Assembly (NCBI GenBank): GCA_003252295.1
Contig: QKEV01000015.1
Coordinates: forward strand, 24,242 to 88,241
Source: a bacterium
GTDB taxonomy: Bacteria > Patescibacteriota > Minisyncoccia > Phycocordibacterales > UBA12088
DNA length: 64,000 nt
Reading direction: 5' to 3'
This document shows, in pieces, positions 9,685 to 63,969 of this stretch. A program made the translations under genes and the position numbers. A model generated the notes under the pieces. It did not search any database and was not told where the DNA came from. It saw only the letters and a program-made list of their open reading frames with translations. The first letter of the stretch is position 1; every line of letters begins with the position of its first letter.

Positions 9685-10074
9685 GTGAGTAAAGTAGAAA
9701 AAGAATTTATGTCAGAAAAAGTAGCAACACCTATAGTACCGAGTCTAACAAGACTCTTTCACATGGAAACAGCACAAAGTGCACCATTTAACTATTTGTA
9801 TAATAAGAAGCATAGTGGTGAGTTTATTGTGTGTGTTGAAGACACAGATCAAGCACGAAGCAAGAAAGAGTATGAAGATGATTTTACATACGACGTCGTA
9901 AGGGATGCAGTATGGGAGTATGATGAAGAAGTAGGGAAGGGGGATGTGCTCTGGCTACTGCGTGTTGCACTCTCTGGCAAGGAACGTTCCCCTGGCCCAT
10001 TCTTACTTGCTGAGTCACTTGGAAAAGAGGAAACACTGACATGTATTCAAGGAGCAAGAGTGGTGTATAGCTAG
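9685..10074 (+). CDS. GluRS-like 129-aa mini-protein, possibly a gltX remnant
   Basis: N-terminal part resembles the GluRS catalytic start (…FIVCVEDTDQARS compared with FxLRIEDTDxxRS, with a degenerate HIGH region). The C-terminus (LWLLRVALSGKERSPGPFLLAESLGKEETL) resembles the GluRS anticodon-domain tail. The entire middle is absent. Confidence 0.45.
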   Translation: MSKVEKEFMSEKVATPIVPSLTRLFHMETAQSAPFNYLYNKKHSGEFIVCVEDTDQARSKKEYEDDFTYDVVRDAVWEYDEEVGKGDVLWLLRVALSGKERSPGPFLLAESLGKEETLTCIQGARVVYS

Positions 10075-12116: not shown

Positions 12117-13088
12117 ATGAAGATTCATCGTAGTTCAGAGCCAATAATTGAGCACATTATTCCTTTTCTTGACTACTGTGAGGTTGAGAAAGGTCTCTCA
12201 CAAAATACGCAGAAGAATTATCACCAGTACCTCCAACTTTTTACAAAGTGGCTTAGAGAGACTGGTAATGACTCCCTACTCCCCCACCAACTTGAGGGTA
12301 GTCATATTTGGGACTATCGACTATACCTCGCTCGTAAGTATAAGACGTCGAGGGGCGACTATCTTACAAAGAAATCTCAAAACTACTACCTCATTGCTCT
12401 TCGCGCATTACTAACCTACCTCACTGATCGTGACATCGAGACACTACCTCCATCAAAGGTGAAGTTGGCAAAGCAAAAGACTGAGGAGACGATTTCTTTT
12501 CTTGAGGTACGCGACATCGAGAAGATGCTTGCGATACCTGATACAACGACGTCGGTAGGTCTTCGCAATAGAGCTATCATGGAACTGTTCTTCTCGTCTG
12601 GTATGCGTATTTCTGAGCTCGTAGCACTCGATGTGGACCAGGTATCGTTTCTTGGTGATGGTAGTACCACGAGGACCTATGAGCTCTCCATTGTTGGTAA
12701 AGGAAGTCATGTGCGAACTATTTTTATCTCACCTCGTGCTGCTGAGTGGTTGCGTACCTACATCAAGAAAGAACGTCACGATGTACACAGGCCGCTCTTT
12801 ATTAACTTCCGTTCGAACTCAAAGAGTAGACGCCTTACTGCTCGTTCTATACAGAAGATGATCTCTCGCTATGCAATACTGGCTGGGCTCTCAAAGAAAG
12901 TGACGCCACACACCTTGCGACATACCTATGCTACTGACCTACTCTCCCACGGAGCGGACCTGAGGAGCGTACAAGAGCTTTTAGGTCACAAGAATGTCTC
13001 TACTACACAGATTTACACACATGTCACCAACAAACGTCTACGTGACATACATGAAAAGTTCCATGGTGGCAGTGATATGGAGCAGTAA
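12117..13088 (+). CDS. tyrosine site-specific recombinase, XerC/XerD family
   Basis: N-terminal SAM-like domain (…FLDYCEVEKGLSQNTQKNY…) and catalytic R…HxxR…Y motifs (GMRISEL…HTLRHTYATDLL…LGHKNVSTTQIYTHV). Confidence 0.85.
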   Translation: MKIHRSSEPIIEHIIPFLDYCEVEKGLSQNTQKNYHQYLQLFTKWLRETGNDSLLPHQLEGSHIWDYRLYLARKYKTSRGDYLTKKSQNYYLIALRALLTYLTDRDIETLPPSKVKLAKQKTEETISFLEVRDIEKMLAIPDTTTSVGLRNRAIMELFFSSGMRISELVALDVDQVSFLGDGSTTRTYELSIVGKGSHVRTIFISPRAAEWLRTYIKKERHDVHRPLFINFRSNSKSRRLTARSIQKMISRYAILAGLSKKVTPHTLRHTYATDLLSHGADLRSVQELLGHKNVSTTQIYTHVTNKRLRDIHEKFHGGSDMEQ

Positions 13089-13181: not shown

Positions 13182-13958
13182 CTACCAACAGGAGGAGTTT
13201 GTGAGAGTTTTATCAATACATGTAGTAACCATGCTCACATTGATCTCAGAGCGACGATACTCATGGTCTACTTTTGGTATTACTTGGAATATGAAATTCT
13301 TATTTTGCTGATCACAGTACTTTTGTATATCTTCAGGGGTGCAGGTACTGTCATGCTCTCCTGCAAAGACAAATACCGGAACCTGCACTATGTGTGATTC
13401 AAGCAGTATGTCATATCGTGAGAAGTCGAGTGCATATGTGTATGGTACTAAGTACTCTAAACTGTACGTTGGGTTGTTAGGTAGATCTCTATTTGAGACC
13501 TTTACACCCTTTTTCTTCCAAAGAGAAAGGGTGTGCTCTGTCATTGCTCTTTTTACGGAGGGCATGATAGCGATCACTGCTTGTGCCATTCCATATCGTG
13601 CGGCAAAGAGTATTGCACAAGTTCCGCCAAGTGAATGTCCGCCTACGACAAGGTGGGAATACACTCCCCTTGTTTTCATGTACTCAATAATGGAATTGAA
13701 GTCCTGAAGTGTTTGTGTTATTGAGTAGTTATCGATTCTGCCATCACTGCTCCATGTGCCTGTTGGGTCAAATGTGACCACAGTATACTCGTGCTTTCGG
13801 GATATGAGTTCAGCTATTCGTGTGAGTCCCAGGTAGTCTTTTGAGTCAAGGAATCCCGGACAGAGCACCAGTAGCTTGTTCGAGTTTCGCTCTGCAAAGT
13901 AAATCGTAATCCCAATGGTACCGCTGGTTCCAGGAATAGTCTGCTGTTTAATATCCAT
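13182..13958 (-). CDS. alpha/beta-fold hydrolase
   Basis: GHSLGG nucleophile elbow, with downstream D and H residues. Confidence 0.7.
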   Translation of the reverse strand: MDIKQQTIPGTSGTIGITIYFAERNSNKLLVLCPGFLDSKDYLGLTRIAELISRKHEYTVVTFDPTGTWSSDGRIDNYSITQTLQDFNSIIEYMKTRGVYSHLVVGGHSLGGTCAILFAARYGMAQAVIAIMPSVKRAMTEHTLSLWKKKGVKVSNRDLPNNPTYSLEYLVPYTYALDFSRYDILLESHIVQVPVFVFAGEHDSTCTPEDIQKYCDQQNKNFIFQVIPKVDHEYRRSEINVSMVTTCIDKTLTNSSCW

Positions 13959-15476: not shown

Positions 15477-15580
15477 ACTCGTTTAATGGATAACTAAAAA
15501 AGCACTCTTACGAGTGCTTTTTTAGGGGCTTCCAGCTAACCACTAAAAATACAATCGTGTATCTCTAGTATAGGATGCTT

Positions 15581-40038: not shown

Positions 40039-40482
40039 TTAGTGGAACACTGCATTGACCCATCCGCTAGAGAATGCGGTACCAGAGCCGACAGTATAAG
40101 TACGAGTAATGATGTTGGTAGTAGTGTAAGTGTTTGGTGTGTGGATAAACATGCTGTTTTTACCAAAAGCACTTGCCGCACCAAAACCAGGGTTCACATG
40201 AGTGAAAGCACTGCTTTTTGCTGCGATCATCATGGTGCCGTACCATTCTCCAAAGTATTGCCTGTTGTTGAGCAAACTTTGACCGTTGAGTGCTGACCCA
40301 CAAGATTCCATAAAACCAATAGCGCTCATGTTCGAGGCGCTCAAGCCGGCAACTGACTTAGCGTTTGCAAAGCCAATTCCCCCAATGTTGAGTTCCTGTG
40401 TTGCGGAACCTAATACACCGGCTTGAGCTGATGCAGCCAAGGCGAAAGTCACTCCAATTGCAAACATAAAAGCTTTTTTCAT
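40039..40482 (-). CDS. secreted small protein, hypothetical
   Basis: Signal peptide MKKAFMFAIGVTFALAASAQA. Gly/Ala/Ser-rich. Same style as the 39298-39720 protein, so possibly paralogous. Confidence 0.5.
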   Translation of the reverse strand: MKKAFMFAIGVTFALAASAQAGVLGSATQELNIGGIGFANAKSVAGLSASNMSAIGFMESCGSALNGQSLLNNRQYFGEWYGTMMIAAKSSAFTHVNPGFGAASAFGKNSMFIHTPNTYTTTNIITRTYTVGSGTAFSSGWVNAVFH

Positions 40483-40790
40483 GTGTTTTCTCCATACATT
40501 TTTTTGAGTTAAACTACAATTTATACTTCAAGTTTCGCATGTTGGTTGCCAACCAGTATGGGCAGGTCCCCCCTTCCCTGTGTATTAACGAACAAACCAG
40601 AGGCCATACTACCCGGTATGACTCTATTATGTCAAACAAAACGTGTGTTTTTATGTTGCAGAATATGCCGTGAACATGTACAATCATCCCTAGTTTCGAA
40701 AGAAACAATACGTTCTGCGCCGTGTCCTTCGTGGCCATACATAACTTTAGTGAAGTGGGAGTAAAGAAGGAGTTGCGTAGAAACCAGCAT

Positions 40791-40863
40791 TCCGCGGTAG
40801 CTCAGCTGGTAGAGCGATCGGCTGTTAACCGATTGGTCGCAGGTTCGAGTCCTGCCCGCGGAG
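40791..40863 (+). tRNA. tRNA-Asn (anticodon GTT)
   Basis: Cloverleaf read by hand: acceptor TCCGCGG/CCGCGGA; D-arm GCTC-AGCTGGTA-GAGC; anticodon arm ATCGG-CTGTTAA-CCGAT; variable loop TGGTC; T-arm GCAGG-TTCGAGT-CCTGC; discriminator G. CCA is not encoded. Confidence 0.9.
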
Positions 40864-40867
40864 CAAC

Positions 40868-40916
40868 TAGAAAAGCACTATTCTTAGTGCTTTTCTGCGT
40901 ATAAGGGGAACGGGAA
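40868..40916 (+). repeat. copy 1 of a 49-bp direct repeat (contains terminator hairpin AAAAGCACTATTCTTAGTGCTTTT)
   Basis: TAGAAAAGCACTATTCTTAGTGCTTTTCTGCGTATAAGGGGAACGGGAA recurs at 45903-45951 with 3 mismatches. Confidence 0.85.
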
Positions 40917-40940
40917 TAGAACTTTTGTTATACTTTGCGT

Positions 40941-41489
40941 ATGAAAGCACCAAATATTGAAACAAACTCTTACCTAATAAGACCCTTTAAAACTAGCGAT
41001 GCGGAACTATGGCAGAAGTGGGATATAGACCCAGAAGTTCAGGCATTTATGCCTGAACCATTTAATGAAGTGCAAGATATTGAAGAGCAATACAAATACA
41101 TTGAAGAATGTGAAGCTGATGAAGAAGGGTGCTACTGGTCAATTGAGACTAAAAACGGAACTACTATCGGTACGGTGGCACTTACAGAGATCAATGAGTA
41201 TCACAAAATTGCCAACCTTGGTATAGTGATCGGTGATAAAAACCACTGGGGCAAGGGAGTTGCAACTGAGGTAATTACTGCCATAGTTGCACACGCATTT
41301 GAACAACTACATCTTTGCAGGATCAGTGCTGAAGTTGAAGAAGGGAACGTGGGAATGATAAAGGTTTTTAAAAAGGTTGGGTTTAAACAAGATGGACTTT
41401 TGGAATCAGCACGTCTGAAGAATACAAAACGTATCAATGTCCACCATTTTGGTTTTGTTAAACCTTCATGCAAAGTTAAATCAAAATAA
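40941..41489 (+). CDS. GNAT-family N-acetyltransferase (RimJ/RimL-like)
   Basis: …IGTVALTEINEYHKIANLGIVIGDKNHWGKGVATEVITAIVAHAFEQL… acetyl-CoA binding motifs. ATG at 40941; the ORF-track start is TTG at 40935. Confidence 0.8.
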   Translation: MKAPNIETNSYLIRPFKTSDAELWQKWDIDPEVQAFMPEPFNEVQDIEEQYKYIEECEADEEGCYWSIETKNGTTIGTVALTEINEYHKIANLGIVIGDKNHWGKGVATEVITAIVAHAFEQLHLCRISAEVEEGNVGMIKVFKKVGFKQDGLLESARLKNTKRINVHHFGFVKPSCKVKSK

Positions 41490-41590
41490 TCAGATTACTT
41501 TTCCCTCCATCGCCCGAATGAACATCAACTGATTGTACATGCCCGTCATGTACTTTCCGTCACCCAGAATGCTTATAATAGCGTCATGTT

Positions 41591-41632
41591 CGCGGAGCTT
41601 GATAAAGCACGTTCAGAAATGAACGTGCTTTT
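41591..41632 (+). repeat. tRNA-3'-end-like element (CGCGGAGCTTGATAAA) plus hairpin AAAGCACGTTC-AGAAAT-GAACGTGCTTT
   Basis: Same GCGGAGC core as the tRNA-Asn 3' end, again followed by a hairpin and T-run. GCGGAGCTTGATAAA recurs at 44592-44606. Confidence 0.6.
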
Positions 41633-41646
41633 GGTATAGTTTGGGT

Positions 41647-42441
41647 ATGGAAGCGATACTTATAACAATAGGACTATTTGTCAGAACCATACAACTACTA
41701 TTACCTGGTTTCTCAAAAATTGATGTTGCAAATATCTTTATTGCAATCGTTGCTGGATTATTTCTTGCGGGCAAGGCAGGAGCAATATTAGCTTTTCCAT
41801 TTGGTTTTGCCCTAATTATTGCTTTATTTTATAAAAATAAAATTTTACCAACAATTACCGAAGGGACTTTATTTTTATACGCTGTAGTTGCAACATATAT
41901 TGCTGTCAGGGACATTGAGTCATTTTCAGCACTATCTAGCACTTATTTAATATTGCTTTTGTTTCTTTCACTTTACGTACTTGTGGGTTTTTACCTTTGT
42001 GTAACAAAAACGAAAGTGCCATCCTTTTTGCAAATCATTTTAATGGTATTTTTTCTTTCAAATGCAATTTATATCGCGTACCAAAGTAGTCTAGTGTTTC
42101 TCATTACTGATAGTTCACCTTTAACACATTTATTGATTGGATATTTTGGTCTCTATTTTATAAGTCACATTTTGTATATCCTCGCCTTAATCCCACTTCC
42201 TGGGAAACATCAATCTTTTAAAGATAGGATGAAAGAGGTGAGAAAACACGCTCAATTCCTAGAAAAGAAATATTCGGATAAAGATATCAATATTAAAAAT
42301 ACTCTAGGTCTTGTTGCTGTAATTATATTGGCCTTCTCCTATAATTATTTCTACAATGATTGGATTACTAGTGTTGTATTACTCCTTATTATAGGTGGCT
42401 ACTTAGCCGCACCAAATAATTTTAAGTTATTAAGCAAATAA
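41647..42441 (+). CDS. polytopic membrane protein, hypothetical
   Basis: About 7 predicted TM helices. No confident family match. Confidence 0.5.
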   Translation: MEAILITIGLFVRTIQLLLPGFSKIDVANIFIAIVAGLFLAGKAGAILAFPFGFALIIALFYKNKILPTITEGTLFLYAVVATYIAVRDIESFSALSSTYLILLLFLSLYVLVGFYLCVTKTKVPSFLQIILMVFFLSNAIYIAYQSSLVFLITDSSPLTHLLIGYFGLYFISHILYILALIPLPGKHQSFKDRMKEVRKHAQFLEKKYSDKDINIKNTLGLVAVIILAFSYNYFYNDWITSVVLLLIIGGYLAAPNNFKLLSK

Positions 42442-42477
42442 TTTATTTTACTCAATTCAACCTCTATCTTTTTCCAA

Positions 42478-42549
42478 TTCAGAGTTCTGAACTTGTCCAG
42501 CACGGGAGCAATAAGAAAAAACAGTATCGTCTTGATACTGTTTTTTCTT
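42478..42549 (+). repeat. island repeat unit R1 (TTCAGAGTTCTGAACTTGTCCAGCACGGGAGCAAT) plus perfect 16-bp-arm hairpin
   Basis: AGTTCtGAACT palindrome followed by a degenerate tRNA 3' end (CGGGAGCAA), then AAGAAAAAACAGTATC-GTCTT-GATACTGTTTTTTCTT. Homologous units occur at 43297-43332 and 49373-49404. Confidence 0.75.
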
Positions 42550-42680
42550 ATCTCGCTATCATGGTCACGGACTCGAACCTATGGACCACATTTTCAAGGA
42601 GTGGAGCGACCATGAAAATGTAGGATCTCGACCATAGGGAGAGGCGAGTCCTGCTTGTGCGTCGAAACGAAGTGAAGGAG

Positions 42681-42723
42681 TGCCCGCGGAGCAATTGACA
42701 ATACCACTATCTAGTGGTATTGT
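42681..42723 (+). promoter_or_regulatory. tRNA-3'-end copy (TGCCCGCGGAGCAA) fused to a sigma70-like promoter TTGACA-N17-TATTGT with an embedded operator palindrome
   Basis: -35 TTGACA at 42695-42700, -10 TATTGT at 42718-42723, 17-nt spacer. Perfect IR AATACCACT-ATCT-AGTGGTATT at 42700-42721. The AAGGAGG SD and ATG at 42756 follow. Confidence 0.7.
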
Positions 42724-42755
42724 TTGTTTAGTTAGCCTTTTGAAAAGGAGGAAGG

Positions 42756-43172
42756 ATGGAAACAATATATGCGATACTAAAAACATTAAAAAGTTTTGGG
42801 TCAGCAAAAGATGTTCCTTTTAGAAAAAGGTCACCTCAGGAAATCATCAGCTCGGGAGTATTTAGTGGATGTTCTGATGTAGCACTTGCTTTTGCGTATC
42901 TGTGCAAGAGTTCAGAGATAAGGGTTCATATTGTTGATACTTTTGACAAAATAATGTTCTCCAAAACCCTAGGTATGGAAGGTATAACAGGGCATGTGTA
43001 TTGTCAGGTATTTAATTCCGATGACACCTGGGTCATGGTTGACCCAACAGTAGGTGCCGTTGATGTTGATATCTGCTCGGATGGACGTGTCCCTATTGTG
43101 TCATACCTAGACAACAGTAAGCTCCTTTCATATGAAGAACTGTGTTTTATAAAAAGTACCTTTCAGGACTAG
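42756..43172 (+). CDS. transglutaminase-like (Cys-His-Asp) core mini-protein, 138 aa
   Basis: Cys in SGCSDVALAFAYLCK, His in GHVYCQVF and Asp in WVMVDPT, in the order and spacing of the transglutaminase-like cysteine peptidase core. Confidence 0.5.
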   Translation: METIYAILKTLKSFGSAKDVPFRKRSPQEIISSGVFSGCSDVALAFAYLCKSSEIRVHIVDTFDKIMFSKTLGMEGITGHVYCQVFNSDDTWVMVDPTVGAVDVDICSDGRVPIVSYLDNSKLLSYEELCFIKSTFQD

Positions 43173-43173
43173 C

Positions 43174-43215
43174 CCGCCCACAACGAAAACCGTTGGAGGG
43201 CGGTTTTCTTTTTAT
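43174..43215 (+). terminator. rho-independent terminator
   Basis: CCGCCCACAACG…CGTTGGAGGGCGG hairpin followed by TTTTCTTTTTAT. Confidence 0.7.
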
Positions 43216-43296
43216 GCAAAGGAGTTCTGAACTACTCTATTTTTAAATAACTCAAAAAACATACCTTGTTTCAATTCACGTTGTATTCTCTTCCAG

Positions 43297-43360
43297 TTCA
43301 CAGTTCTGAACTTGTCCAGTACGGGGAGCAATTGACAATACCACTATCTAGTGGTATTGT
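43297..43360 (+). promoter_or_regulatory. island repeat unit R3 plus promoter/operator module (second copy)
   Basis: TTCACAGTTCTGAACTTGTCCAGTACGGGGAGCAAT, then TTGACA (43332-43337), N17 containing AATACCACT-ATCT-AGTGGTATT, then TATTGT (43355-43360). Near-identical to 42681-42723. A further AGTTCTGAACT lies at 43213-43223. Confidence 0.75.
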
Positions 43361-43428
43361 TTTGTTTGGCTAAAGTCTGTTCCTACGGTAATTGAATCAC
43401 AAATCATTTAGCATGCTTGGAGGAATAA

Positions 43429-43938
43429 ATGAAAAGTATAGAATATACTGAAATTGCTGGTCATGATAATCTGAATAAGTTTTTAAACGACAGAAATAAA
43501 ATTATCTTAGAATGCAACGATGCGATTCGTAAAGTTGCTAACAAGTTAATTATCAAAGCGAAAGATGAAAGGATTACACTCTGCCGGTTACCTTTGAAAG
43601 CAGTGTTGTTTCGCACAAAAGAAGACCGTGAAGCTAAACGTAATAACACTTTCATCAACTATGGTGAGTATCATGTGGATGAACTTGAACTGTATTACGT
43701 GGAATTTTTTGTACACAACGAAGCAAGAGTTGCTGGCAATATAGGACTCATTATTTCTGGAAAACAGCCAGATCGAACTACAGGTGATTTTAGTTATATT
43801 TGTGGTTTCGAGGATTTTGATTACGTTGATTTGTCATGGGGAAAGAACTGGTTCTTTTTAAACAAAAATGACTATTTTACGTTTAAGGAAGTAGTCTTGA
43901 ATTTTAAAAAGGAACTACCCTCTTGCGTAGTGCAGTAA
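43429..43938 (+). CDS. hypothetical protein (169 aa), island cargo
   Basis: GGAGG SD. No recognisable family. Confidence 0.45.
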   Translation: MKSIEYTEIAGHDNLNKFLNDRNKIILECNDAIRKVANKLIIKAKDERITLCRLPLKAVLFRTKEDREAKRNNTFINYGEYHVDELELYYVEFFVHNEARVAGNIGLIISGKQPDRTTGDFSYICGFEDFDYVDLSWGKNWFFLNKNDYFTFKEVVLNFKKELPSCVVQ

Positions 43939-43952
43939 AATACGTACAAAAA

Positions 43953-43990
43953 ACCTGTCTAGTAGCCTGTCTCTGGACAGGTTACTTTTT
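43953..43990 (+). terminator. rho-independent terminator
   Basis: ACCTGTC…GACAGGT hairpin followed by TACTTTTTAT. Confidence 0.6.
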
Positions 43991-44015
43991 ATATACACGT
44001 TCGAACATCGTCCCA

Positions 44016-44056
44016 CGCTCGGAGCAATTGACAATACAGTAGTAAAATGACATTGT
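44016..44056 (+). promoter_or_regulatory. island unit R4: CGCTCGGAGCAAT plus TTGACA and a degenerate -10
   Basis: Same GGAGCAATTGACAATAC junction as R2 and R3. The downstream -10 region has diverged (CATTGT/TTGTTA). Confidence 0.5.
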
Positions 44057-44125
44057 TAATTTTGGATAATTTCTGTTTTTTACTATGTAATAAATTTAAA
44101 AAACTTTTGAAAACATGAGGTTGTT

Positions 44126-44296
44126 ATGAATCGACGAAGTGACAAGTTTTGTGCTCCACCACCAACATCTCGTTCCTATCCAGGTAAGGGTAGTTATCAG
44201 ATGGAATGTTTAAGGCGCAACGCAATAATCAAACTTCAGTTTGTTGTTGTAGCAGTTGTCATAGTAGCTATTTTGGTTACCCTGCCTTTTTTGTAA
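44126..44296 (+). CDS. 56-aa small protein with C-terminal TM helix (MNRRSDKFCAPPPTSRSYPGKGSYQMECLRRNAIIKLQFVVVAVVIVAILVTLPFL)
   Basis: Below the ORF cutoff. GAGG SD 5 nt upstream. Tail-anchored topology. Confidence 0.35.
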   Translation: MNRRSDKFCAPPPTSRSYPGKGSYQMECLRRNAIIKLQFVVVAVVIVAILVTLPFL

Positions 44297-44528
44297 GTTT
44301 TGGTCGTTTGTATGTTTGTAGACAGAAACTATTAAGCCGCTTAGGAAGATGTAATCCAAGCGGCTTTAATTTGTAAAATATAACTGAATAATGGGGTCTG
44401 ACCCCGTTTCATAAAAGGTGACTGACCCCTTTTTTCCTTGCTGTTTCTCTCTAACAAGGACCAGGAAAATTTTCTGGCCCTTTTGCGTTACAAGTGTCTT
44501 AGGGGTAAACCGCTTTGTTTAATCAATG

Positions 44529-44584
44529 AATGAACATGCCATGCCTGCCCGGCACCCTTTGTGGTGTCTCGGGGCATGTTCATT
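44529..44584. repeat. perfect 12-bp-arm inverted repeat (AATGAACATGCC…GGCATGTTCATT) with a 32-nt GC-rich loop
   Basis: Lies in the 350-nt non-coding stretch 44297-44647, which also holds hairpins at 44334-44366 and 44393-44436. The tRNA-3'-like TGCGGAGCTTGATAAA follows at 44591. Confidence 0.6.
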
Positions 44585-44647
44585 GGATGCTGCGGAGCTT
44601 GATAAAAAAACATATAAAATAAATGTTATTGGTGTATTATAGGATAT

Positions 44648-44776
44648 ATGAAATTTGAAGAAGTGCATTACCAAGAGCCGGTTCCAGAAATGGAAAGTTT
44701 TGAAAAAGTTGACGACTTTCTTGAAAATGAAGAAGGGGTCCTTGCAACTCTTCGTAAAAAAACAAAAAAGAGGTGA
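44648..44776 (+). CDS. 42-aa acidic small protein (MKFEEVHYQEPVPEMESFEKVDDFLENEEGVLATLRKKTKKR)
   Basis: Protein-like frame. Its stop TGA sits inside the GAGGTGA SD of the next ORF, consistent with translational coupling. Preferred over the overlapping K-rich frame that the ORF track starts at 44655. Confidence 0.35.
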   Translation: MKFEEVHYQEPVPEMESFEKVDDFLENEEGVLATLRKKTKKR

Positions 44777-44780
44777 TAAC

Positions 44781-44948
44781 TTGGAAGCAGTAAATGTAGA
44801 ACACAAAGAAGATTTAGTTCTTGGTTTTGTTGGACCTCTAACTGATGAATTTTCTTCACAGATGCAACCGCACAATGCAGAAAATTTTGGCTGCGTAGAC
44901 TGTATTGATTGTGTATGTGATGTAGGTCCTTGCGATTGCGACACTTAA
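44781..44948 (+). CDS. 55-aa Cys/Asp-rich peptide (…SQMQPHNAENFGCVDCIDCVCDVGPCDCDT), candidate modified-peptide precursor or metal-binding peptide
   Basis: TTG start 5 nt after the GAGGTG SD. Six Cys alternating with Asp in the last 18 residues, preceded by a leader-like region. Confidence 0.4.
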   Translation: MEAVNVEHKEDLVLGFVGPLTDEFSSQMQPHNAENFGCVDCIDCVCDVGPCDCDT

Positions 44949-45032
44949 GTCGCTTAAAAGTTAATCTCAACATACTGGCCATTTTCTTTGGCCAGTATTA
45001 TTTTATAATCAAATAAACATTTTAAAAAGATA

Positions 45033-45722
45033 ATGAGCAAGGTCATATTTGGCACTAATAAAGACAAAGATTTCAGAAACCATCTTATACAGCTGAGATG
45101 GCGAAATAAAACTGGTTTTACGTATTCTCCAGCAGAAAGTGAGTACTTTGATTCTCTGGAGAGATGTAAGGATGAGCTTGAGCAATGGAAGCTGTTTGAA
45201 GATTACTCACGTGAGTATTATTTGGAGGACAATAAACAGACAATTAATTCTGTTTTAAGTTATTTTCAAACATTGTGGAATAATGTTGAAGAAGTGTATG
45301 TTAAAAAAATGGAAGAAATGCACAATAAAGTATTTCCTTACAAAACAGTTTATGGTTATTTGTCTACGTCGCCAGGTGGCTGGGGCTTCAATTTAAATAA
45401 AAAAAACCCTTGGTTTGCATGTCCCAATAAAAAGAATGACAAGTTCCTAAAAGTTGCAATGCATGAACTCATGCATGGTTTTTTTATTGAATATTTTAGA
45501 GATGACTTAAAAGAAAAATACCGTTTAACTGACAACAAACTTTGGGATATTCAAGAGTCATTAACGGTGCTTCTAAATATTGAATTAGGTGATATTCTGC
45601 CTCACAAAGACTTGGGGTATCCACAACACAAAGAGTTACGCGAAGAAGTTAAGTCGGTATGGTTAGAGACAAGTGATATTGATGAGGTCCTGCGACGTGC
45701 AAGTCAATTTACTAAAGGGTAA
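45033..45722 (+). CDS. HExxH-motif protein, putative zinc metallopeptidase-like (229 aa)
   Basis: AMHELMHGFF is the only recognisable motif. No signal peptide. An A8 homopolymer lies in the CDS at 45399-45406. Confidence 0.5.
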   Translation: MSKVIFGTNKDKDFRNHLIQLRWRNKTGFTYSPAESEYFDSLERCKDELEQWKLFEDYSREYYLEDNKQTINSVLSYFQTLWNNVEEVYVKKMEEMHNKVFPYKTVYGYLSTSPGGWGFNLNKKNPWFACPNKKNDKFLKVAMHELMHGFFIEYFRDDLKEKYRLTDNKLWDIQESLTVLLNIELGDILPHKDLGYPQHKELREEVKSVWLETSDIDEVLRRASQFTKG

Positions 45723-45902
45723 TACCTTTGACTATTTTGTTTATACAAACGAAATGTGTTTGTAATTATTAAAAACTAATTTTAGTTGTTCTCTAACGAT
45801 AAATTTTGTTGTTGTAATGCTGATGCAACAGGACTTCTTTCCAGTTTTCTTTCCCATTCTACCCAGTTCACGTTTATAAAGGTGCTTAGGTGTTGGAGCC
45901 CT

Positions 45903-45951
45903 TAGAAAAGCACTATTCTTAGTGCTTTTCTGCGTATAGGGGGAACAGGAT
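45903..45951 (+). repeat. copy 2 of the 49-bp direct repeat
   Basis: 46 of 49 positions identical to 40868-40916. Preceded by a GGAGCC tRNA-end-like remnant. Confidence 0.85.
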
Positions 45952-46059
45952 TTGAACCATACTAAATACTATATAGTAAATATAACAATATTATGCTAAA
46001 ACACAGGTAGAAAAATAAATGACCACAATACCTAATATCAAATATGGAGGTTGTTGCAT

Positions 46060-47232
46060 ATGCAAACTGATCAAGTTTTGTCGGCACTGTACGAGTGTTT
46101 TCGTGGGAAGGGTTGGAGGTTATATACCTGCACTACATGTAATAATCTCATTTTCTCAAAAAATGCGAAAACACTTTGTTGGAGAAGGAAAGAATGTGGG
46201 CAAGAAAAAAAGTTTTTGTCATTACCAAAACAGAAAGCGATGGTAGTTCCGGGGCAAATCAAGGATGTAATAGAAAAAGCTGCTACAAAAAAGGGTTACA
46301 ATCGCGTGGAAAGTATTCCACTTACCGCTAACCATGGGAAAACAGATTTAATTATTGCTGGTGTACAGCTGTATAACGATGTAATTCATGGGAAAGCAAT
46401 ACAATCTTGCTTTCCTGACCGTTGTGTAATATCTCAACCGTGTGTACGGATGCAGTTTGCTGATAAGGTTGGTAAAGTAGATGGTATTTCGACCGCATTT
46501 GTAAACACATGTACCGAGCACGTTGGAGCTACGGTTGTCGAACATGCATTTGCCGTGGATTTTTGGCTAGACGTGCTTTCATGCCTTGGTTTGCATGTGT
46601 GTGATGTGTCGCTGGTATATCGTACAAAGAAACGAAATTGGGGGACAGGTGATTTTCTTTCCCATGATTTATTTTTTATGTATGGTGATTTAGAACTGGG
46701 TGATGCTTCCTATGCAGTTGTCCCAACTAGGTGTGCAGGTGGTTCAGGGGTATTGCAGATTAGTGACGTAGGCTTTGGGGTAGAACGAATCGGATGGGCA
46801 ATCAATAAAACTGATACGTACTATGACGTGTTACAACCATGGGACATGCAGTATACGACAGAAGTTAACGATCTGTACCGTACACTTACGTTACTTGCTA
46901 TGACCGGTGTTAAACCTGGACCAAAAGGTGCAGGGTTACAGTTTCGTCGCCTTGCAAAACAATTATACCTTCTGACTCCAAACATCTTTTCATTTGGTCT
47001 TGTAAGTTACTATTTTCGGTATTGGGGTTCGTTTACGACATGTCTTTGTGGATTAGAAGTTTCTTCTTCTGTAATTTCTCGCGAGTATGATAGGTTGCGT
47101 AACAATGGGATCGCAAGTAACAATAATTGGCCTGCCCCAAAAAATGATGAGAGTACAGAAGAATACCTTGAAAGAATGGTGTATAGTAAAATAGTAACTC
47201 CCAGTGAGTTGCGTAAGATGTACACACCATGA
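46060..47232 (+). CDS. alanyl-tRNA-synthetase catalytic-core paralog (class IIc fold) with N-terminal Cys-rich zinc-ribbon-like segment; lacks tRNA-recognition, editing and C-Ala domains
   Basis: Collinear with the AlaRS N-domain. VIEKAATKKGYNRVESIPL…DLIIAGVQ compares with F…KGH.V.SS.LVP.NDPTLLFTNAGM. SQPCVRMQF compares with TSQ.C.RAGG. ISDVGFGVERIGWAINKTDTYYDVL compares with VDTGMGLERLAAVLQ…SNYD.DLF (motif 3). About 390 aa against about 870 aa for AlaRS. ATG at 46060 with a GGAGG SD. Confidence 0.6.
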   Translation: MQTDQVLSALYECFRGKGWRLYTCTTCNNLIFSKNAKTLCWRRKECGQEKKFLSLPKQKAMVVPGQIKDVIEKAATKKGYNRVESIPLTANHGKTDLIIAGVQLYNDVIHGKAIQSCFPDRCVISQPCVRMQFADKVGKVDGISTAFVNTCTEHVGATVVEHAFAVDFWLDVLSCLGLHVCDVSLVYRTKKRNWGTGDFLSHDLFFMYGDLELGDASYAVVPTRCAGGSGVLQISDVGFGVERIGWAINKTDTYYDVLQPWDMQYTTEVNDLYRTLTLLAMTGVKPGPKGAGLQFRRLAKQLYLLTPNIFSFGLVSYYFRYWGSFTTCLCGLEVSSSVISREYDRLRNNGIASNNNWPAPKNDESTEEYLERMVYSKIVTPSELRKMYTP

Positions 47233-47918
47233 AAAAACAAAAACTAAAGCTATACTTGTCTGGGGGTGGTGACGAAACACAGTCATTCGCCCTCGACAAG
47301 CTTTTTTTTACTTCAATTCCTGAAAATGGAAAGGTTTTGTATATACCTATAGCTTTACGTGGTCACAAACTCTTTTTAAATGCACATATGTGGTTTTCTG
47401 GTGTAGTAAAGAAACATGGTCGTGATGATATACAGGTTGTGCGTTGTGATGATGTTGACACAATAACAATTAAGAAAATATCTCTGTATGATGCTGTGTA
47501 TATAGGTGGAGGAAATACTTGGTCACTTATAAAAGAAGTATCTGAAGCTGGTTTTGATGAAGTGTTAAAAAAATATATAACAGAAGGAGGGGTGGTATAC
47601 GGCGGGAGTGCTGGTGCAATTCTTCTTGGCACTTGTATTGATACAAGTGATGATGAAAATGTTGTGAAATGGAATAATATAAATGGATTAGATCTTATTT
47701 CTCCTTACTCAGTGGTTTGTCACTATACGGAAGTCATGGAGAAACGATATTCTGGTTGGGCAAACAAACATGGACCTATTATTTGCATTCCTGAAAATGC
47801 AGGGATGTACACAGAAGGTAACAGTTTGGTAAATTGTGGTAACGGTATGATAACCGTTTTTGATACTTCTGGAAAAAAAATAGAATACTCTGCAAATGAG
47901 TGCTTAATGTTCGAATAA
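47229..47918 (+). CDS. peptidase S51 family (dipeptidase E / cyanophycinase-like)
   Basis: VYIGGGNTWSLI, GGSAGAILL (Ser nucleophile) and a downstream His, collinear with PepE. Start overlaps the AlaRS-like stop (ATGA). Confidence 0.75.
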   Translation: MKKQKLKLYLSGGGDETQSFALDKLFFTSIPENGKVLYIPIALRGHKLFLNAHMWFSGVVKKHGRDDIQVVRCDDVDTITIKKISLYDAVYIGGGNTWSLIKEVSEAGFDEVLKKYITEGGVVYGGSAGAILLGTCIDTSDDENVVKWNNINGLDLISPYSVVCHYTEVMEKRYSGWANKHGPIICIPENAGMYTEGNSLVNCGNGMITVFDTSGKKIEYSANECLMFE

Positions 47919-47923
47919 ACTGT

Positions 47924-47952
47924 AAAAGCACTTCGGGTATCGAAGTGCTTTT
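47924..47952. terminator. bidirectional terminator
   Basis: AAAAGCACTTCG-GGTAT-CGAAGTGCTTTT between the convergent S51 gene and the SAM-synthetase gene. Confidence 0.8.
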
Positions 47953-47968
47953 ATTGTCAAACCAGTTC

Positions 47969-49225
47969 TCAGTAAAGGATGCATTTACCTTCAATGATTT
48001 CCTGAGAAAGAACAGAAAGGTTTTTCATAGTATCAATGTAAATATCTTTCACTGTATCTTCGTGCCTCCCGAGTAGTTTGGGTCTGTTTATTTCTATAGA
48101 AGCCATCCAAGGATCATCCAGGTTTCTGCCCATCTGGGATGTGATAAACACCTTACATTCTGTGTTTATTGCATTGAATACATTGTCCGCAATTCTTTGT
48201 GCTGCTGCTGTGTACAGTTTTCCAACATGGTAAATAGGATTTTTGCCACAACATGCCTCCATACTCATGTTTCTTGTAAACGGGATAATGCCGTTATGTC
48301 GGTTCCCTCGACCTACCACACCTTCGTCACCGCTTTCGATGGCACTTCCTATGGCAGTTAAGTAAAAATCTTGACGAGCCGCATTATCACGAGTATTTAA
48401 CTCAACTGAGTAGTTGTAGTACGGATACATTGTCTTTGCGTGTCCCAGTATTATCTCTGAAACCTCTTGAAGAGATTTGCGATAAAAAACCAGGGAGTTT
48501 GTATACGCAGCGACAAATGGTATACATGCGGTGATTTTTACGTTTCTGCCATTTCTTACTGACATAACCTTGATGTCAGTACCAACATAAGGATGCTCCT
48601 TTTTAAAACCCTTAAATTCGTTGAGTTGGTTTTCGATAGCAATGGTAAGTAGTTCTATTTCGCTTAACGGAGCATACGCCACAGCAGTTGAAGTGTCGTT
48701 GGAGCGGAGATCATTGTCGTGATAACGGGCAAATTTTATGTTCGGTACTGTAAAAAAATGCCCGCGTTCATTTTTTGTATTACCGTCCTTGCTATGTACA
48801 ACCCCCGGTCCGGGTGCCATATGAGTGTTGTCAATAATTGTTAGCCATTGTTCAACGTCAAGGAGCGGCATTACAGCTTTAAAGTGTTTCTTTGCAGCAT
48901 TGCTCGCGATATCAAGATAAGGTACCTCGCGTCCTTCAAAGTCTTTAGTAAAACGACAGTTCAGGTATAGGTGTATCGGACGTTCCATAAATCCTTTACC
49001 AAACTGAACGTGTGAGGCTCCTCCAGCAAGTGCAATTTTGTCCACCATGTGTCGTAACACCACACCGTGTTCATTAAGAGTGTATTGTGAATATGCCTGT
49101 GAAATTTTTTCAGCAATTGTGTCACAGAGTGTGTCTGGGTGACCTATTCCCTTTCGTTCCACCACCTCAAACGGTGTTTCTGAGCAAAGTGTGTTTTGTT
49201 GAGCAATAACTGTAAAATTGTTCAT
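47969..49225 (-). CDS. S-adenosylmethionine synthetase, archaeal type (MAT)
   Basis: ERKGIGHPDTLCDTIAE N-terminal motif and overall collinearity with the archaeal AdoMet synthetase family, not bacterial MetK. Confidence 0.8.
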   Translation of the reverse strand: MNNFTVIAQQNTLCSETPFEVVERKGIGHPDTLCDTIAEKISQAYSQYTLNEHGVVLRHMVDKIALAGGASHVQFGKGFMERPIHLYLNCRFTKDFEGREVPYLDIASNAAKKHFKAVMPLLDVEQWLTIIDNTHMAPGPGVVHSKDGNTKNERGHFFTVPNIKFARYHDNDLRSNDTSTAVAYAPLSEIELLTIAIENQLNEFKGFKKEHPYVGTDIKVMSVRNGRNVKITACIPFVAAYTNSLVFYRKSLQEVSEIILGHAKTMYPYYNYSVELNTRDNAARQDFYLTAIGSAIESGDEGVVGRGNRHNGIIPFTRNMSMEACCGKNPIYHVGKLYTAAAQRIADNVFNAINTECKVFITSQMGRNLDDPWMASIEINRPKLLGRHEDTVKDIYIDTMKNLSVLSQEIIEGKCILY

Positions 49226-49372
49226 CGTATCTCTCCTTTAGGTTTCCTTGATTGTGAGCTTCTCTTTTCTGCACCTGTAATAACACGTTTATTTTACTAT
49301 TTCAATAGTAGAGCTTTGTCTTCGGTAAGTGCAATACATAAACTTTGTATATTTTTTTGCACTGTCTTTCAC

Positions 49373-49437
49373 TTCACAGTTCTGAACTTGTCCAAGAGTG
49401 GGAGTAAAGAGATTAAGCACCAGAAATGGTGCTTTTT
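49373..49437 (+). repeat. island repeat unit R5 (…TTCACAGTTCTGAACTTGTCCAAGAGTGGGAG…) plus hairpin AGCACCAGAAATGGTGCTTTTT
   Basis: Third full copy of the AGTTCTGAACTTGTCCA element with a degenerate tRNA-end segment, again followed by a terminator-like hairpin. Confidence 0.7.
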
Positions 49438-62859: not shown

Positions 62860-63969
62860 CTAGTCTTCAAGTTCTATTTCAACTTCGTTTGAGTAGGTGC
62901 CACACTCAGTACCGCCAATGTACTCACAGACGCGTACGTAGTAGGTACCAGCACCATCAAACGCATCAAGGATAGCATCATCTCTTGAGCTGCTGTCATA
63001 TGAGAGGAGTTCATCACTATCTCGTGTTGGATAGGTTGGGTTTTCGTCCATAGACCAGACCACCTTGAATCCTTTTTTCGCGGTTCCATCGGTTTCCCAT
63101 TCAACCTCATTGTTGCTGTTCCCTACTTCAAGATCGATTGCATCAACGTAAGAAGTGTATTCTGATTCAAGTTCTATTTCAACTTCGTTTGAGTAAGCAC
63201 CACATTTGCTGCTGCCAAGATTTTCACAAACTCGTACGTAGTAAGTGCCTGGACCATCAAAAGCGTAGAGGGTTCTTCCACCACCATCTTTGCTGTAGCT
63301 AAGTAGTGACTTGTCGCCGTCACGTGTTGGATAGGTTGGGTTTTCGTCCATAGACCAGACCACCCTAAACCCCTTTTTAGAAGGTTCACTAGATTCCCAA
63401 GTGATGGTTGCTTCATCCTCATCTTCTACCTGAAGGGTGATTTCGATAGAATCCTCATTTGTATCCTCATCTGCGTCTTCATTGTCATCAGTCTCTTCCT
63501 CATCGTCACTCTTGTTGAGCTGTTCACGTTTTTGCTCCTGTTCTTGCTTTCTAAGTGCTATACAGTTGTGATACTGCTCTTGCATCATTGATCGAGTTTG
63601 TGGACCAACGATACCTACCTGATCAATACCATATTTCTCCTGGTATCGCTTAACCGCCTTTTCAGTGAGAGGACCAAAGTATCCTGTGATCTGCCCCTCA
63701 GGGTAAATACTTAGGTCAGACGCAAGGAATTCCTGAAGTTGTGTTACTTCGTCACCTTGTGATCCGAGTTGCAAAGCATTTTTAAATTGTCCGTATGCGC
63801 AAAGGTTGCCTGTTTCGGTATCACTTGATGTGTCCTCTCCATCCTCATCTTCTTCTTGACCAGCTGCGTACTCACGAGCCAAATCAGCTTTATCTTCTGG
63901 GATAATGTTGAGTGCAACGAGCATTTCAATGAGGCTCGAAATATTCACCGTGTCTGCCCTCGCCTGCAC
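62860..63969 (-). CDS. peptidoglycan-binding (PG_binding_1-like) protein with two tandem roughly 95-aa repeats; N-terminus may extend beyond the window
   Basis: …LQEFLASDLSIYPEGQITGYFGPLTEKAVKRYQ… PG-binding motif. An acidic linker. Two repeats (KKGF[RK]VVWSMDENPTYPTRD…YYVRVCE…CG.YSNEVEIELE). Listed start is GTG; the frame continues open to the window edge. Confidence 0.6.
   Translation of the reverse strand: MQARADTVNISSLIEMLVALNIIPEDKADLAREYAAGQEEDEDGEDTSSDTETGNLCAYGQFKNALQLGSQGDEVTQLQEFLASDLSIYPEGQITGYFGPLTEKAVKRYQEKYGIDQVGIVGPQTRSMMQEQYHNCIALRKQEQEQKREQLNKSDDEEETDDNEDADEDTNEDSIEITLQVEDEDEATITWESSEPSKKGFRVVWSMDENPTYPTRDGDKSLLSYSKDGGGRTLYAFDGPGTYYVRVCENLGSSKCGAYSNEVEIELESEYTSYVDAIDLEVGNSNNEVEWETDGTAKKGFKVVWSMDENPTYPTRDSDELLSYDSSSRDDAILDAFDGAGTYYVRVCEYIGGTECGTYSNEVEIELED

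Follow-up and report, generated by a model that had tools for sequence, protein, structure and literature searches.

Probable tandem insertion of units without recombinases at the 3' end of tRNA-Asn in a Parcubacteria lineage

The Patescibacteria, or Candidate Phyla Radiation (CPR), have tiny genomes, and how they acquire genes is poorly understood. We compared a 64-kb window of a patescibacterial contig (QKEV01000015.1, positions 24,242 to 88,241, assembly GCA_003252295.1) with itself permissively for repeats, and all coordinates below are those of the window unless a contig is named. The window is chromosomal, with genes for ribosomal proteins, RpoA, FtsW, MurG, MreB, MurA, Def, and Fmt. At 40791-40864 on the forward strand it carries an intact tRNA-Asn(GTT) gene (detected by ARAGORN; Rfam tRNA score of 72.7 bits), and between this gene and about 49.4 kb small groups of low-GC genes are separated by short, related boundary sequences built around the last nucleotides of the tRNA. 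We believe that the 3' end of tRNA-Asn is probably a site-specific insertion hot spot in this Parcubacteria lineage, and that the window holds a tandem array of units without recombinases at that site, with the tRNA gene as its anchor.

The tRNA-Asn gene does not encode CCA, and its end reads GGAGCAA. It is 96% identical to the tRNA-Asn gene at the syntenic position in the contig of a relative (L110). A TTGCAG-17-TACAAT pattern upstream of it (40656-40684, forward strand) is a putative promoter, and AACATGTACAATCAT is also found upstream of the orthologous gene in L110. Relaxed ARAGORN searches returned no credible second tRNA or pseudogene between 40 and 50 kb, and tRNA-Asn was the sole Rfam match at E <= 1.

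A preliminary description of this DNA had noted a 49-bp direct repeat, once just after the tRNA and again 5 kb downstream. The repeat is real, with its three mismatches at 40904, 40912, and 40916, and its true extent is 63 nt (40860-40922 versus 45895-45957, identity 56/63). Within it an exact 36-nt core, TAGAAAAGCACTATTCTTAGTGCTTTTCTGCGTATA, lies at 40868-40903 and at 45903-45938, and chance cannot account for an exact 36-nt repeat within 64 kb. The similarity opens with GGAGC, the 5 nt that close tRNA-Asn; the next 3 nt are mismatched, and the flanks are at background identity (6/30 upstream, 10/30 downstream). We call the copies, the only two in the window, R1 and R2. R1 (40860-40922, forward strand) consists of the last 5 nt of the tRNA, a hairpin at 40869-40896, and a decayed inverted copy of the tRNA 3' end at 40897-40922. 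R2 (45855-45957, forward strand), which ends about 100-110 nt before an AlaRS-like open reading frame (ORF), consists of a left arm at 45855-45894, GGAGC at 45895, a hairpin at 45904-45931, and an inverted tRNA-3'-like piece whose reverse complement is GGTTCAAATCCTGTTCCCCC. The left arm of R2 is degenerate and represents just the outer part (ATTCT..CCAGTTCAC) of an arm that we call B-type, which recurs at other boundaries. The hairpin that the preliminary description saw in each copy is indeed strong (13-15 bp, -18 kcal/mol, z = -6.3), but a simple terminator pattern scan did not list it because its U-run (UUUUCU) is partly inside, and belongs to, an extended stem. The extended palindromes fold at -34.7 kcal/mol for R1 (40836-40925, z = -3.65) and at -31.7 kcal/mol for R2 (z = -4.0).

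GGAGCAA or a close variant occurs on the forward strand at seven positions between 40.86 and 49.41 kb: 40860 (the tRNA), 42505 (boundary A), 42688 (A'), 43325 (B), 44021 (C), 45895 (R2, where it reads GGAGCCC), and 49401 (E, where it reads GGAGTAA). Each has on its left a sequence similar to the T-arm and acceptor 3' strand of the tRNA and on its right a hairpin module. Scored for resemblance to the 3' half of the tRNA, with 17,000 random windows of the remaining sequence as reference, the left arms had empirical p values of 0.005 (B), 0.002 (A and C, each), and < 6e-5 (A'). The right modules are R-type at the tRNA and R2, D1-type (TTGACAATACCACTATCTAGTGGTATTGTTT) at A', B, and C, and unique at A and E, so that the arms form a mosaic in which the left side is tRNA, B-type, or C-type, the right side is R, D1, or unique, and the changeover falls at GGAGCAA. 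The B-type version, TTCACAGTTCTGAACTTGTCCAG.., is common to A, B, and E, whose arms are 60-82% identical to one another. The palindrome AGTTCTGAACT was found four times versus 0.09 expected, all within 42.4-49.4 kb, and no copy of it, of the B-type arm, of D1, or of R is present in the other 55 kb of the window.

Boundary A (42452-42547, forward strand, repeat family D3) has a B-type arm with AGTTCTGAACT, GGAGCAA at 42505-42511, and a hairpin at 42515-42547. It is followed by a non-coding mini-unit that includes boundary A' (42548-42694, forward strand) and consists of an inverted T-arm, GGACTCGAACC (42569-42579), then a stem-loop, and then A' itself (42644-42694), in which GCGAGTCCTGC and TGCCCGCGGAGCAA are separated by a 26-nt insert and the match to the tRNA is 14/14. 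Across the mini-unit and A' the exact matches to tRNA-Asn are 14/14 and 12/12, with A' tallied as 14/14 plus 10/11 nt, and the mini-unit folds no better than its shuffles (z = -1.1). We dropped the idea that A and A' are two separate boundaries, given that relatives show 42512-42694 to be one mini-unit: its architecture, in the window a hairpin, GGACTCGAACC, a stem-loop, and A', also follows tRNA-Asn in the contigs L108, L117, and L137. The first D1 module comes next (42695-42744, forward strand), with a hairpin at 42697-42724. Boundary B (43271-43381, forward strand) has a B-type arm, GGAGCAA at 43325-43331, and a second D1 copy (hairpin 43334-43361) that is 92% identical to the first, and its arm is 82% identical to that of A without gaps and 76% with gaps. 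Boundary C (43996-44077, forward strand) reads ACGTTCGAAC...CGGAGCAA with GGAGCAA at 44021-44027, followed by a diverged D1 module. Boundary E (49347-49434, forward strand), the outermost member of the family, has a B-type arm with AGTTCTGAACT that is 80% identical to arm B over 51 nt, GGAGTAA at 49401-49407, and a hairpin at 49415-49434. In the first two D1 copies (42695-42723 and 43332-43360) we also noted a near-consensus promoter-like TTGACA-17-(TG)TATTGT that overlaps the module's own 12-bp hairpin, 30-70 nt before the next ORF. The fourth copy of AGTTCTGAACT, at 43223-43233, is 79 nt before that of boundary B and just past the terminator of a transglutaminase-like gene, and is explained by no model that we considered. 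The B-type pattern had no matches in viral contigs, and all 15 matches of a D1 17-mer in viral contigs were within unrelated coding sequence, so we attribute them to chance.

Between the boundaries lie one to three genes each, co-oriented, most with their own terminators. Their content is as the preliminary description had it, with the GNAT assignment solid and the transglutaminase-like one weak. Unit 1 (40941-42441, forward strand) encodes a GNAT acetyltransferase (40941-41489; Pfam Acetyltransf_3, E = 1.5e-29; GC 0.386) and a 266-aa membrane protein (41641-42441; GC 0.318). Unit 3 (42756-43208, forward strand) encodes a 138-aa transglutaminase-like protein, whose match to Pfam Transglut_core (E = 1.6e-4) is just below the Pfam cut-off, and ends in a terminator at 43185-43208. 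Unit 4 (43429-43986, forward strand) encodes a 169-aa hypothetical protein (GC 0.343), with a terminator at 43961-43986. Unit 5 (44126-45722, forward strand; GC 0.35-0.40) encodes a 56-aa membrane peptide, a 97-aa Cys-rich peptide (44655-44948), and a 229-aa HExxH protein (45033-45722); an HELMH motif and a Cys-rich tail are visible in its translations, and its proteins had no match in Pfam, NCBIfam, PADLOC, or PHROGs. PADLOC returned nothing, and PHROGs recognized the GNAT protein only. The seven genes between R1 and R2 have a GC content of 0.318-0.404, compared with 0.440 +/- 0.020 for 50 other genes of the window, and GC is back to the core level, 0.47, at the LemA gene (49572).

To the right of R2 is a trio of genes (46063-49225, mixed strands, assigned with Pfam and NCBIfam) that could be a sixth unit or resident DNA: an AlaRS-like gene (46063-47232, forward strand, GC 0.410), an S51 peptidase (PepE-like) gene (47229-47918, forward strand, GC 0.358), and a convergent gene for an archaeal-type AdoMet synthetase, MetK (47969-49225, reverse strand, GC 0.414). 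The AlaRS-like protein has 389 aa, matches just the first ~130 residues of the NCBIfam AlaRS models, and has more than 120 homologues, all unnamed. The trio is a block that is conserved in many Patescibacteria in unrelated neighborhoods (L098, L099/L100, and L101, identity 41-58%). In L099/L100 it lies 2.3 kb from two tandem tRNA-Asn genes that are followed by a degenerate 3' fragment, so the linkage between trio and tRNA-Asn may be old.

Contigs from relatives show that this tRNA gene is a variable site. The homologues of Fmt at 64-78% identity come from Parcubacteria/Patescibacteria, and contigs of relatives keep the gene order CysRS, Na/H exchanger, HerA-like, MreB, MurA, PriA, Def, Fmt, S30AE, PF1765-like, PEBP, with a glutaredoxin in place of the PF1765-like gene in L108/L109 (one relative, from independent assemblies). 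tRNA-Asn is found at the corresponding place in L105, L108/L109, and L110, and the sequence after GGAGC is different in each. In L110 the tRNA is followed by a terminator and then by a gene for a 583-aa large serine recombinase (LSR), on the reverse strand and ending against the tRNA. A metagenome scan with the last 23 nt of tRNA-Asn returned 35 loci, and in L115/L142, L130, and L135 reverse-strand LSR genes of 521-540 aa again abut tRNA-Asn. These LSRs have Resolvase and Recombinase domains, with a Zn ribbon in one. We noted that the open frames of the LSR genes (L110, contig positions 12251-14002; L115, L130, and L135) run on antisense through the 3' half of tRNA-Asn (...LLRGQ[D/G]SNL...), and that the stop codon of the L110 frame is the TAA of the anticodon loop. 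Judging from these frames, the LSR C-terminus may be encoded by the attachment-site/tRNA sequence.

In other relatives (L108/L114, L117, L137/L139, L141, and L144) the sequence after tRNA-Asn is a hairpin and then the tRNA 3' end in inverted orientation. Together with the T-arm and acceptor 3' strand of the tRNA, these form trailer palindromes that are 55-94 nt long and 77-94% self-complementary, and the hairpin sequence varies among the loci while the pairing is kept. Such palindromes may act in termination or processing or as a recombination site. L108/L114, L117, and L137/L139 also have, at +127 to +177, a stem-loop and the tRNA 3' end again, in direct orientation and starting from the T-loop. 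In L108/L109 the displaced 3' fragment, GTCGTAGACTTCGAGTCCTGCCCGCGGAGCAAC, lies 127 nt downstream of tRNA-Asn, and the tRNA itself has a ~330-nt insertion in its anticodon loop, with the 5' fragment upstream. R1 and R2 fold like these trailers, and on the basis of their layout we read the R module of the window as a decayed trailer of this "hairpin plus inverted copy" kind. The anticodon loop is itself a place of insertion: group I introns (Rfam RF00028, about 72 bits) are found there in L134 (contig positions 1720-1997) and L137 (939-1233), the ~330-nt insertion of L108 (14671-14996) is at the equivalent position and scores below the Rfam threshold, and the intron 3' end (...ATATAGTCC...) recurs in many of the 35 metagenome loci.

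Several contigs from relatives end after PEBP: L105 (80 kb), L106 (55 kb), L108 (92 kb), L109 (87 kb), and L154 (37 kb), within 0.2-0.4 kb of tRNA-Asn where tRNA-Asn is present. Contig ends at one spot are the behavior expected of a repeated or strain-variable region in assemblies. In the lineage resembling GW2011_GWA2_43_11, which has no tRNA-Asn at this place, L154 (contig position 13648) and L155 (7586) are identical until ~350 nt past PEBP and then diverge fully, so the position after PEBP may be variable even without tRNA-Asn. Viral contigs contained five copies of the tRNA-Asn 3' half, starting from the anticodon loop, but these are typical tyrosine-integrase attachment (att) sites from other taxa with no LSR, and we consider them uninformative for this lineage.

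Given these observations, we infer that a recombinase made the joins seen in the window, that the enzyme was an LSR acting in trans or since lost, and that the units arrived in a particular order. The junction of an incoming unit would consist of a tRNA-3' mimic, GGAGCAA, and a hairpin module. The proximal end of a unit would be the hairpin module (R-type, D1-type, or unique), and its distal end would be a degenerate mimic of the T-arm and acceptor 3' strand that closes in GGAGCAA. After recombination, the hairpin module of the newcomer would follow the tRNA and its mimic arm would be joined to the former trailer, and each insertion would displace the previous trailer downstream. R1 would be the trailer from the newest unit, that of the GNAT and membrane proteins with distal arm A, while R2 would be an earlier trailer, now 5 kb off and fused to the decayed distal arm of the neighboring unit. 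R2 would also be the proximal end of the unit to its right, which comprises the trio and has E as its distal arm. The near-identity of R1 and R2 would come from their origin in one element family or at one locus, and the R module would be the usual tRNA-Asn trailer of the lineage, with a strong terminator hairpin and an inverted copy of the tRNA 3' end.

Repeated insertion would explain the arm mosaic, the confinement of the repeat families to one stretch, and the composition. It would also explain why arms A, B, and E have derived states in common, as displaced tRNA ends that decayed independently would not produce these. We consider LSRs to be the candidate enzymes because relatives have them at exactly this site, because they need only a short common core, as here, and because the closest described system, the ssrA islands of Dehalococcoides, has a similar layout. 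If the LSR core is short, then the 63 nt common to R1 and R2 must be homology between arms. The units, bounded by putative att-type GGAGCAA sites, have no recombinase of their own, and we read the array as decayed or dependent on enzymes supplied in trans. R1 and R2 we read less as the two ends of one element than as the homologous ends, proximal to the tRNA, of two inserted units.

Several points weigh against this reading. The core common to the boundaries is just ~7-10 nt, and by eye there is no convincing dyad symmetry around GGAGCAA of the kind expected for LSR att sites. The left arm of R2 (p = 0.5) and that of E are not significant alone, and their tie to the tRNA runs only through homology to the B-type arm. 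At 94%, the identity of R1 and R2 is surprisingly high if five events separate them; a common element family, insertion en bloc, or gene conversion could each account for it. No ORF between 40.8 and 49.5 kb has a recombinase domain, and tblastn found no recognizable LSR pseudogene or remnant there; its matches in the window were the antisense tRNA (LLRGQDSN) and an insignificant 23-aa match at 44572-44640 (E about 1). The sole recombinase gene of the window is XerC/XerD-like (12117-13088) and 28 kb away. In the metagenome and viral collections searched we found neither an empty site nor a circular junction, nor any unit a second time. The arrangement of an empty site, with the tRNA followed by one repeat copy and the AlaRS-like gene, did not turn up for want of a sufficiently close relative with the locus assembled throughout; a scan of GTDB genomes for the LemA protein gave a best match of 55% identity among the matches listed, and no relative. 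Lastly, a conserved trio with a metK gene that is likely essential fits poorly with a mobile unit. The trio is either inside the array or resident, and it may be resident, in which case boundary E would need another explanation.

The preliminary description had offered R1 and R2 as candidate attL and attR. As far as recombination at tRNA-Asn is concerned this agrees with our findings, since the copies bracket foreign low-GC DNA and tRNA-Asn is also an insertion site in relatives, but as simple ends of one 5-kb element they are doubtful. In that model a single element, possibly composite, would have inserted at 40868-45902 in one step, with R1 as attL, R2 as attR, and the 36-nt repeat as the core. 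The exact core with sharp edges on both sides, the low GC of all genes between the copies, and the wide conservation of the trio across Patescibacteria, which makes it plausibly resident, fit such an element, and the movement en bloc of accreted composites is documented (PMC5704250). Nevertheless, only 5 nt of the tRNA remain in R2, whose left flank does not resemble a displaced tRNA 3' end, four similar boundaries lie inside the 5 kb (42505, 42688, 43325, and 44021) and another at 49401, outside the pair and beyond the trio, and there is no integrase. A repeated segment of 36-63 nt wholly downstream of the tRNA would moreover be atypical for tRNA-targeting tyrosine integrases and is far longer than the cores of serine recombinases. 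The 5 kb may have come in five steps or, already accreted, as one block, and the attL/attR model is the one-step special case. At about the same low level of confidence we entertain a more specific possibility, that Parcubacteria have an integron-like cassette system at tRNA-Asn, in which recombinase-less units, from non-coding mini-units of 130-190 nt up to about 3.5 kb, are inserted, stacked, and exchanged in trans by LSRs. Both ends of such cassettes would be uniform, with a hairpin and an inverted tRNA 3' mimic at one and a direct mimic ending in GGAGCAA at the other. An integron proper we rejected, as there is no intI beside the array and no attC-like organization, and by eye we saw no GTTRRRY core at the boundaries.

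We regard the other explanations as improbable. The preliminary description had also proposed a reused terminator-plus-leader module, and the 63-mer could be a terminator or insulator copied by duplication or gene conversion without any site-specific recombination; its strong hairpin, the position of both copies between the end of a transcription unit and a following gene, and a loosely similar terminator at 15495-15521 (83% over 30 nt) would suit such a module. However, the repeat takes in 5 nt from the end of the tRNA, its right half, like the trailers of relatives, is an inverted tRNA 3' end, here in decayed form, and the leader part fails, as nothing after the 63 nt is common to the two copies. 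The two copies are moreover both in the tRNA-linked low-GC array, and as far as the 64-kb window goes, where all related arms lie within 8.6 kb, R is not a dispersed family resembling repetitive extragenic palindromes (REP) or miniature inverted-repeat transposable elements (MITE). In JGI metagenome contigs and IMG/VR the R hairpin, as an exact or degenerate pattern, had 0 matches. We therefore give this module little credence, and even less to two further ideas. The order of the array could exist in no single cell if the assembly had joined strain variants at short repeats, and an independent k = 31 Logan assembly of SRR7216773 (L001 and L002) does break in the tRNA (~40836) and inside R2 (~45909). 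Contigs of relatives also break at the locus, L111 at the equivalent tRNA position, and the breaks of L001, L002, and L111 are consistent with repeats or co-occurring variants. But repeats that reach 31 nt always break a de Bruijn graph of this kind, and mis-joins in contigs of 99 kb usually involve k-mer or read lengths above the 36-60 nt of the repeats here. Both flanks moreover agree with independent contigs, so an artifact of this type is very improbable. It is just as hard to believe that the boundaries are RNA punctuation, with tRNA-3'-like pieces and hairpins that process or terminate a long transcript from the tRNA promoter into separate mRNAs. The cargo genes are co-oriented with the tRNA, except for metK, every boundary has a stable hairpin, and by eye an upstream pyrimidine stretch could pair with GGGAG into a minihelix. 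On the other hand, the fragments are without the 5' acceptor strand, the mini-unit folds no better than shuffled sequence, there is no Rfam match, and each cargo gene has its own terminator before the boundary.

Tandem insertion at tRNA-Asn, the reading that we favor, has precedents in islands that lie in tandem between partial t(m)RNA repeats, in a serine recombinase gene on the reverse strand at attL, and in members that lack an integrase (PMC3146451; bioRxiv 10.1101/2020.12.28.424599; PMC5704250; PMC4383910). Among the ssrA islands of Dehalococcoides (McMurdie et al. 2011), many have no integration module and were read as cis-mobilizable elements (PMC3146451). These islands, like our array, lie in tandem downstream of one small-RNA gene, have short direct repeats of its 3' end as boundaries, are low in GC, and have upstream of each repeat a motif that does not align with the gene and is an element arm (PMC3146451). 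They carry a ~540-aa serine recombinase gene on the reverse strand beside attL (PMC3146451), and such an LSR gene beside the att site is absent from the window but present at the tRNA-Asn end of L110, L115, L130, and L135. They differ in that the target is tmRNA with a core of 20 bp rather than tRNA-Asn with ~7-10 nt in a Parcubacteria host, and the units of the window are far smaller (0.18-3.5 kb), have no recombinase, have conserved hairpin proximal arms (R and D1), and are at most putatively mobile.

The tycheposons of Prochlorococcus (Hackl et al.) likewise integrate at tRNA genes in streamlined genomes, push older elements inward, and leave remnants and partial tRNAs (bioRxiv 10.1101/2020.12.28.424599), but they mostly have tyrosine recombinases, replication modules, and clear tRNA copies, in contrast to the strongly diverged mimics and absence of mobility genes here. 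Streptococcal cis-mobilizable elements (CIMEs) are att-flanked tandem segments at a tRNA 3' end, without integrase or transfer genes and movable only with help (PMC5704250), although they derive from integrative and conjugative elements (ICEs) or integrative and mobilizable elements (IMEs) and sit beside a functional element, whereas the window has no functional partner and units the size of a single gene. tRNA islands of the Islander type share the intact, regenerated tRNA at one end, the foreign composition, and the variation among relatives (PMC4383910). Their displaced 3' fragments have a counterpart here chiefly in A' and, in degenerate form, in A, B, and C. They differ in that they have a tyrosine integrase inside and a faithful fragment from the anticodon loop or T-loop, where R2 keeps 5 nt (PMC4383910). 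Integron arrays resemble the window in their co-oriented, mostly single-gene cassettes, their imperfectly palindromic sites with halves from different cassettes, and their presumed proximal insertion; they differ in that the window has no adjacent intI, no attC organization, and a tRNA anchor, and several of its cassettes have their own terminators and promoter-like sequences.

The array is a genomic island of a known type, although its host, from a poorly studied phylum, is not a familiar one, and its unusual details are the very small units, the conserved palindromic trailers, and the recombinase frames that overlap the tRNA. Our results suggest that in one Parcubacteria lineage foreign DNA repeatedly enters at the tRNA-Asn 3' end, that LSRs are the likely agents, and that recombinase-less units of a single gene can stack there. 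Given that long contigs end at this locus in four to five relatives, metagenome-assembled genomes of the CPR probably contain too little of this flexible gene pool. Should the units still be mobile in trans, the associated recombinases and the short, defined ends would be a testable set of enzymes and sites; otherwise the array is an ordinary decayed island.

Elsewhere in the window, the neighbors upstream of tRNA-Asn encode secreted hypothetical proteins, and for the gene next to the tRNA (40039-40482) a comparison with 5.8 billion proteins gave no homologue other than its own product. A 129-aa ORF (9685-10074, forward strand), flanked by murG and an M23 peptidase gene, combines ~59 N-terminal residues of the GluRS/GlnRS catalytic domain (Pfam tRNA-synt_1c) with the end of the anticodon-binding domain (Anticodon_2), and it looks like an internally deleted or truncated gltX-like gene. 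At 62866-63399, direct repeats with a 300-bp period and 78-83% identity lie inside a reverse-strand ORF (62860-63969) with a PG_binding_1 domain, which looks like a repeat-containing cell-wall protein.

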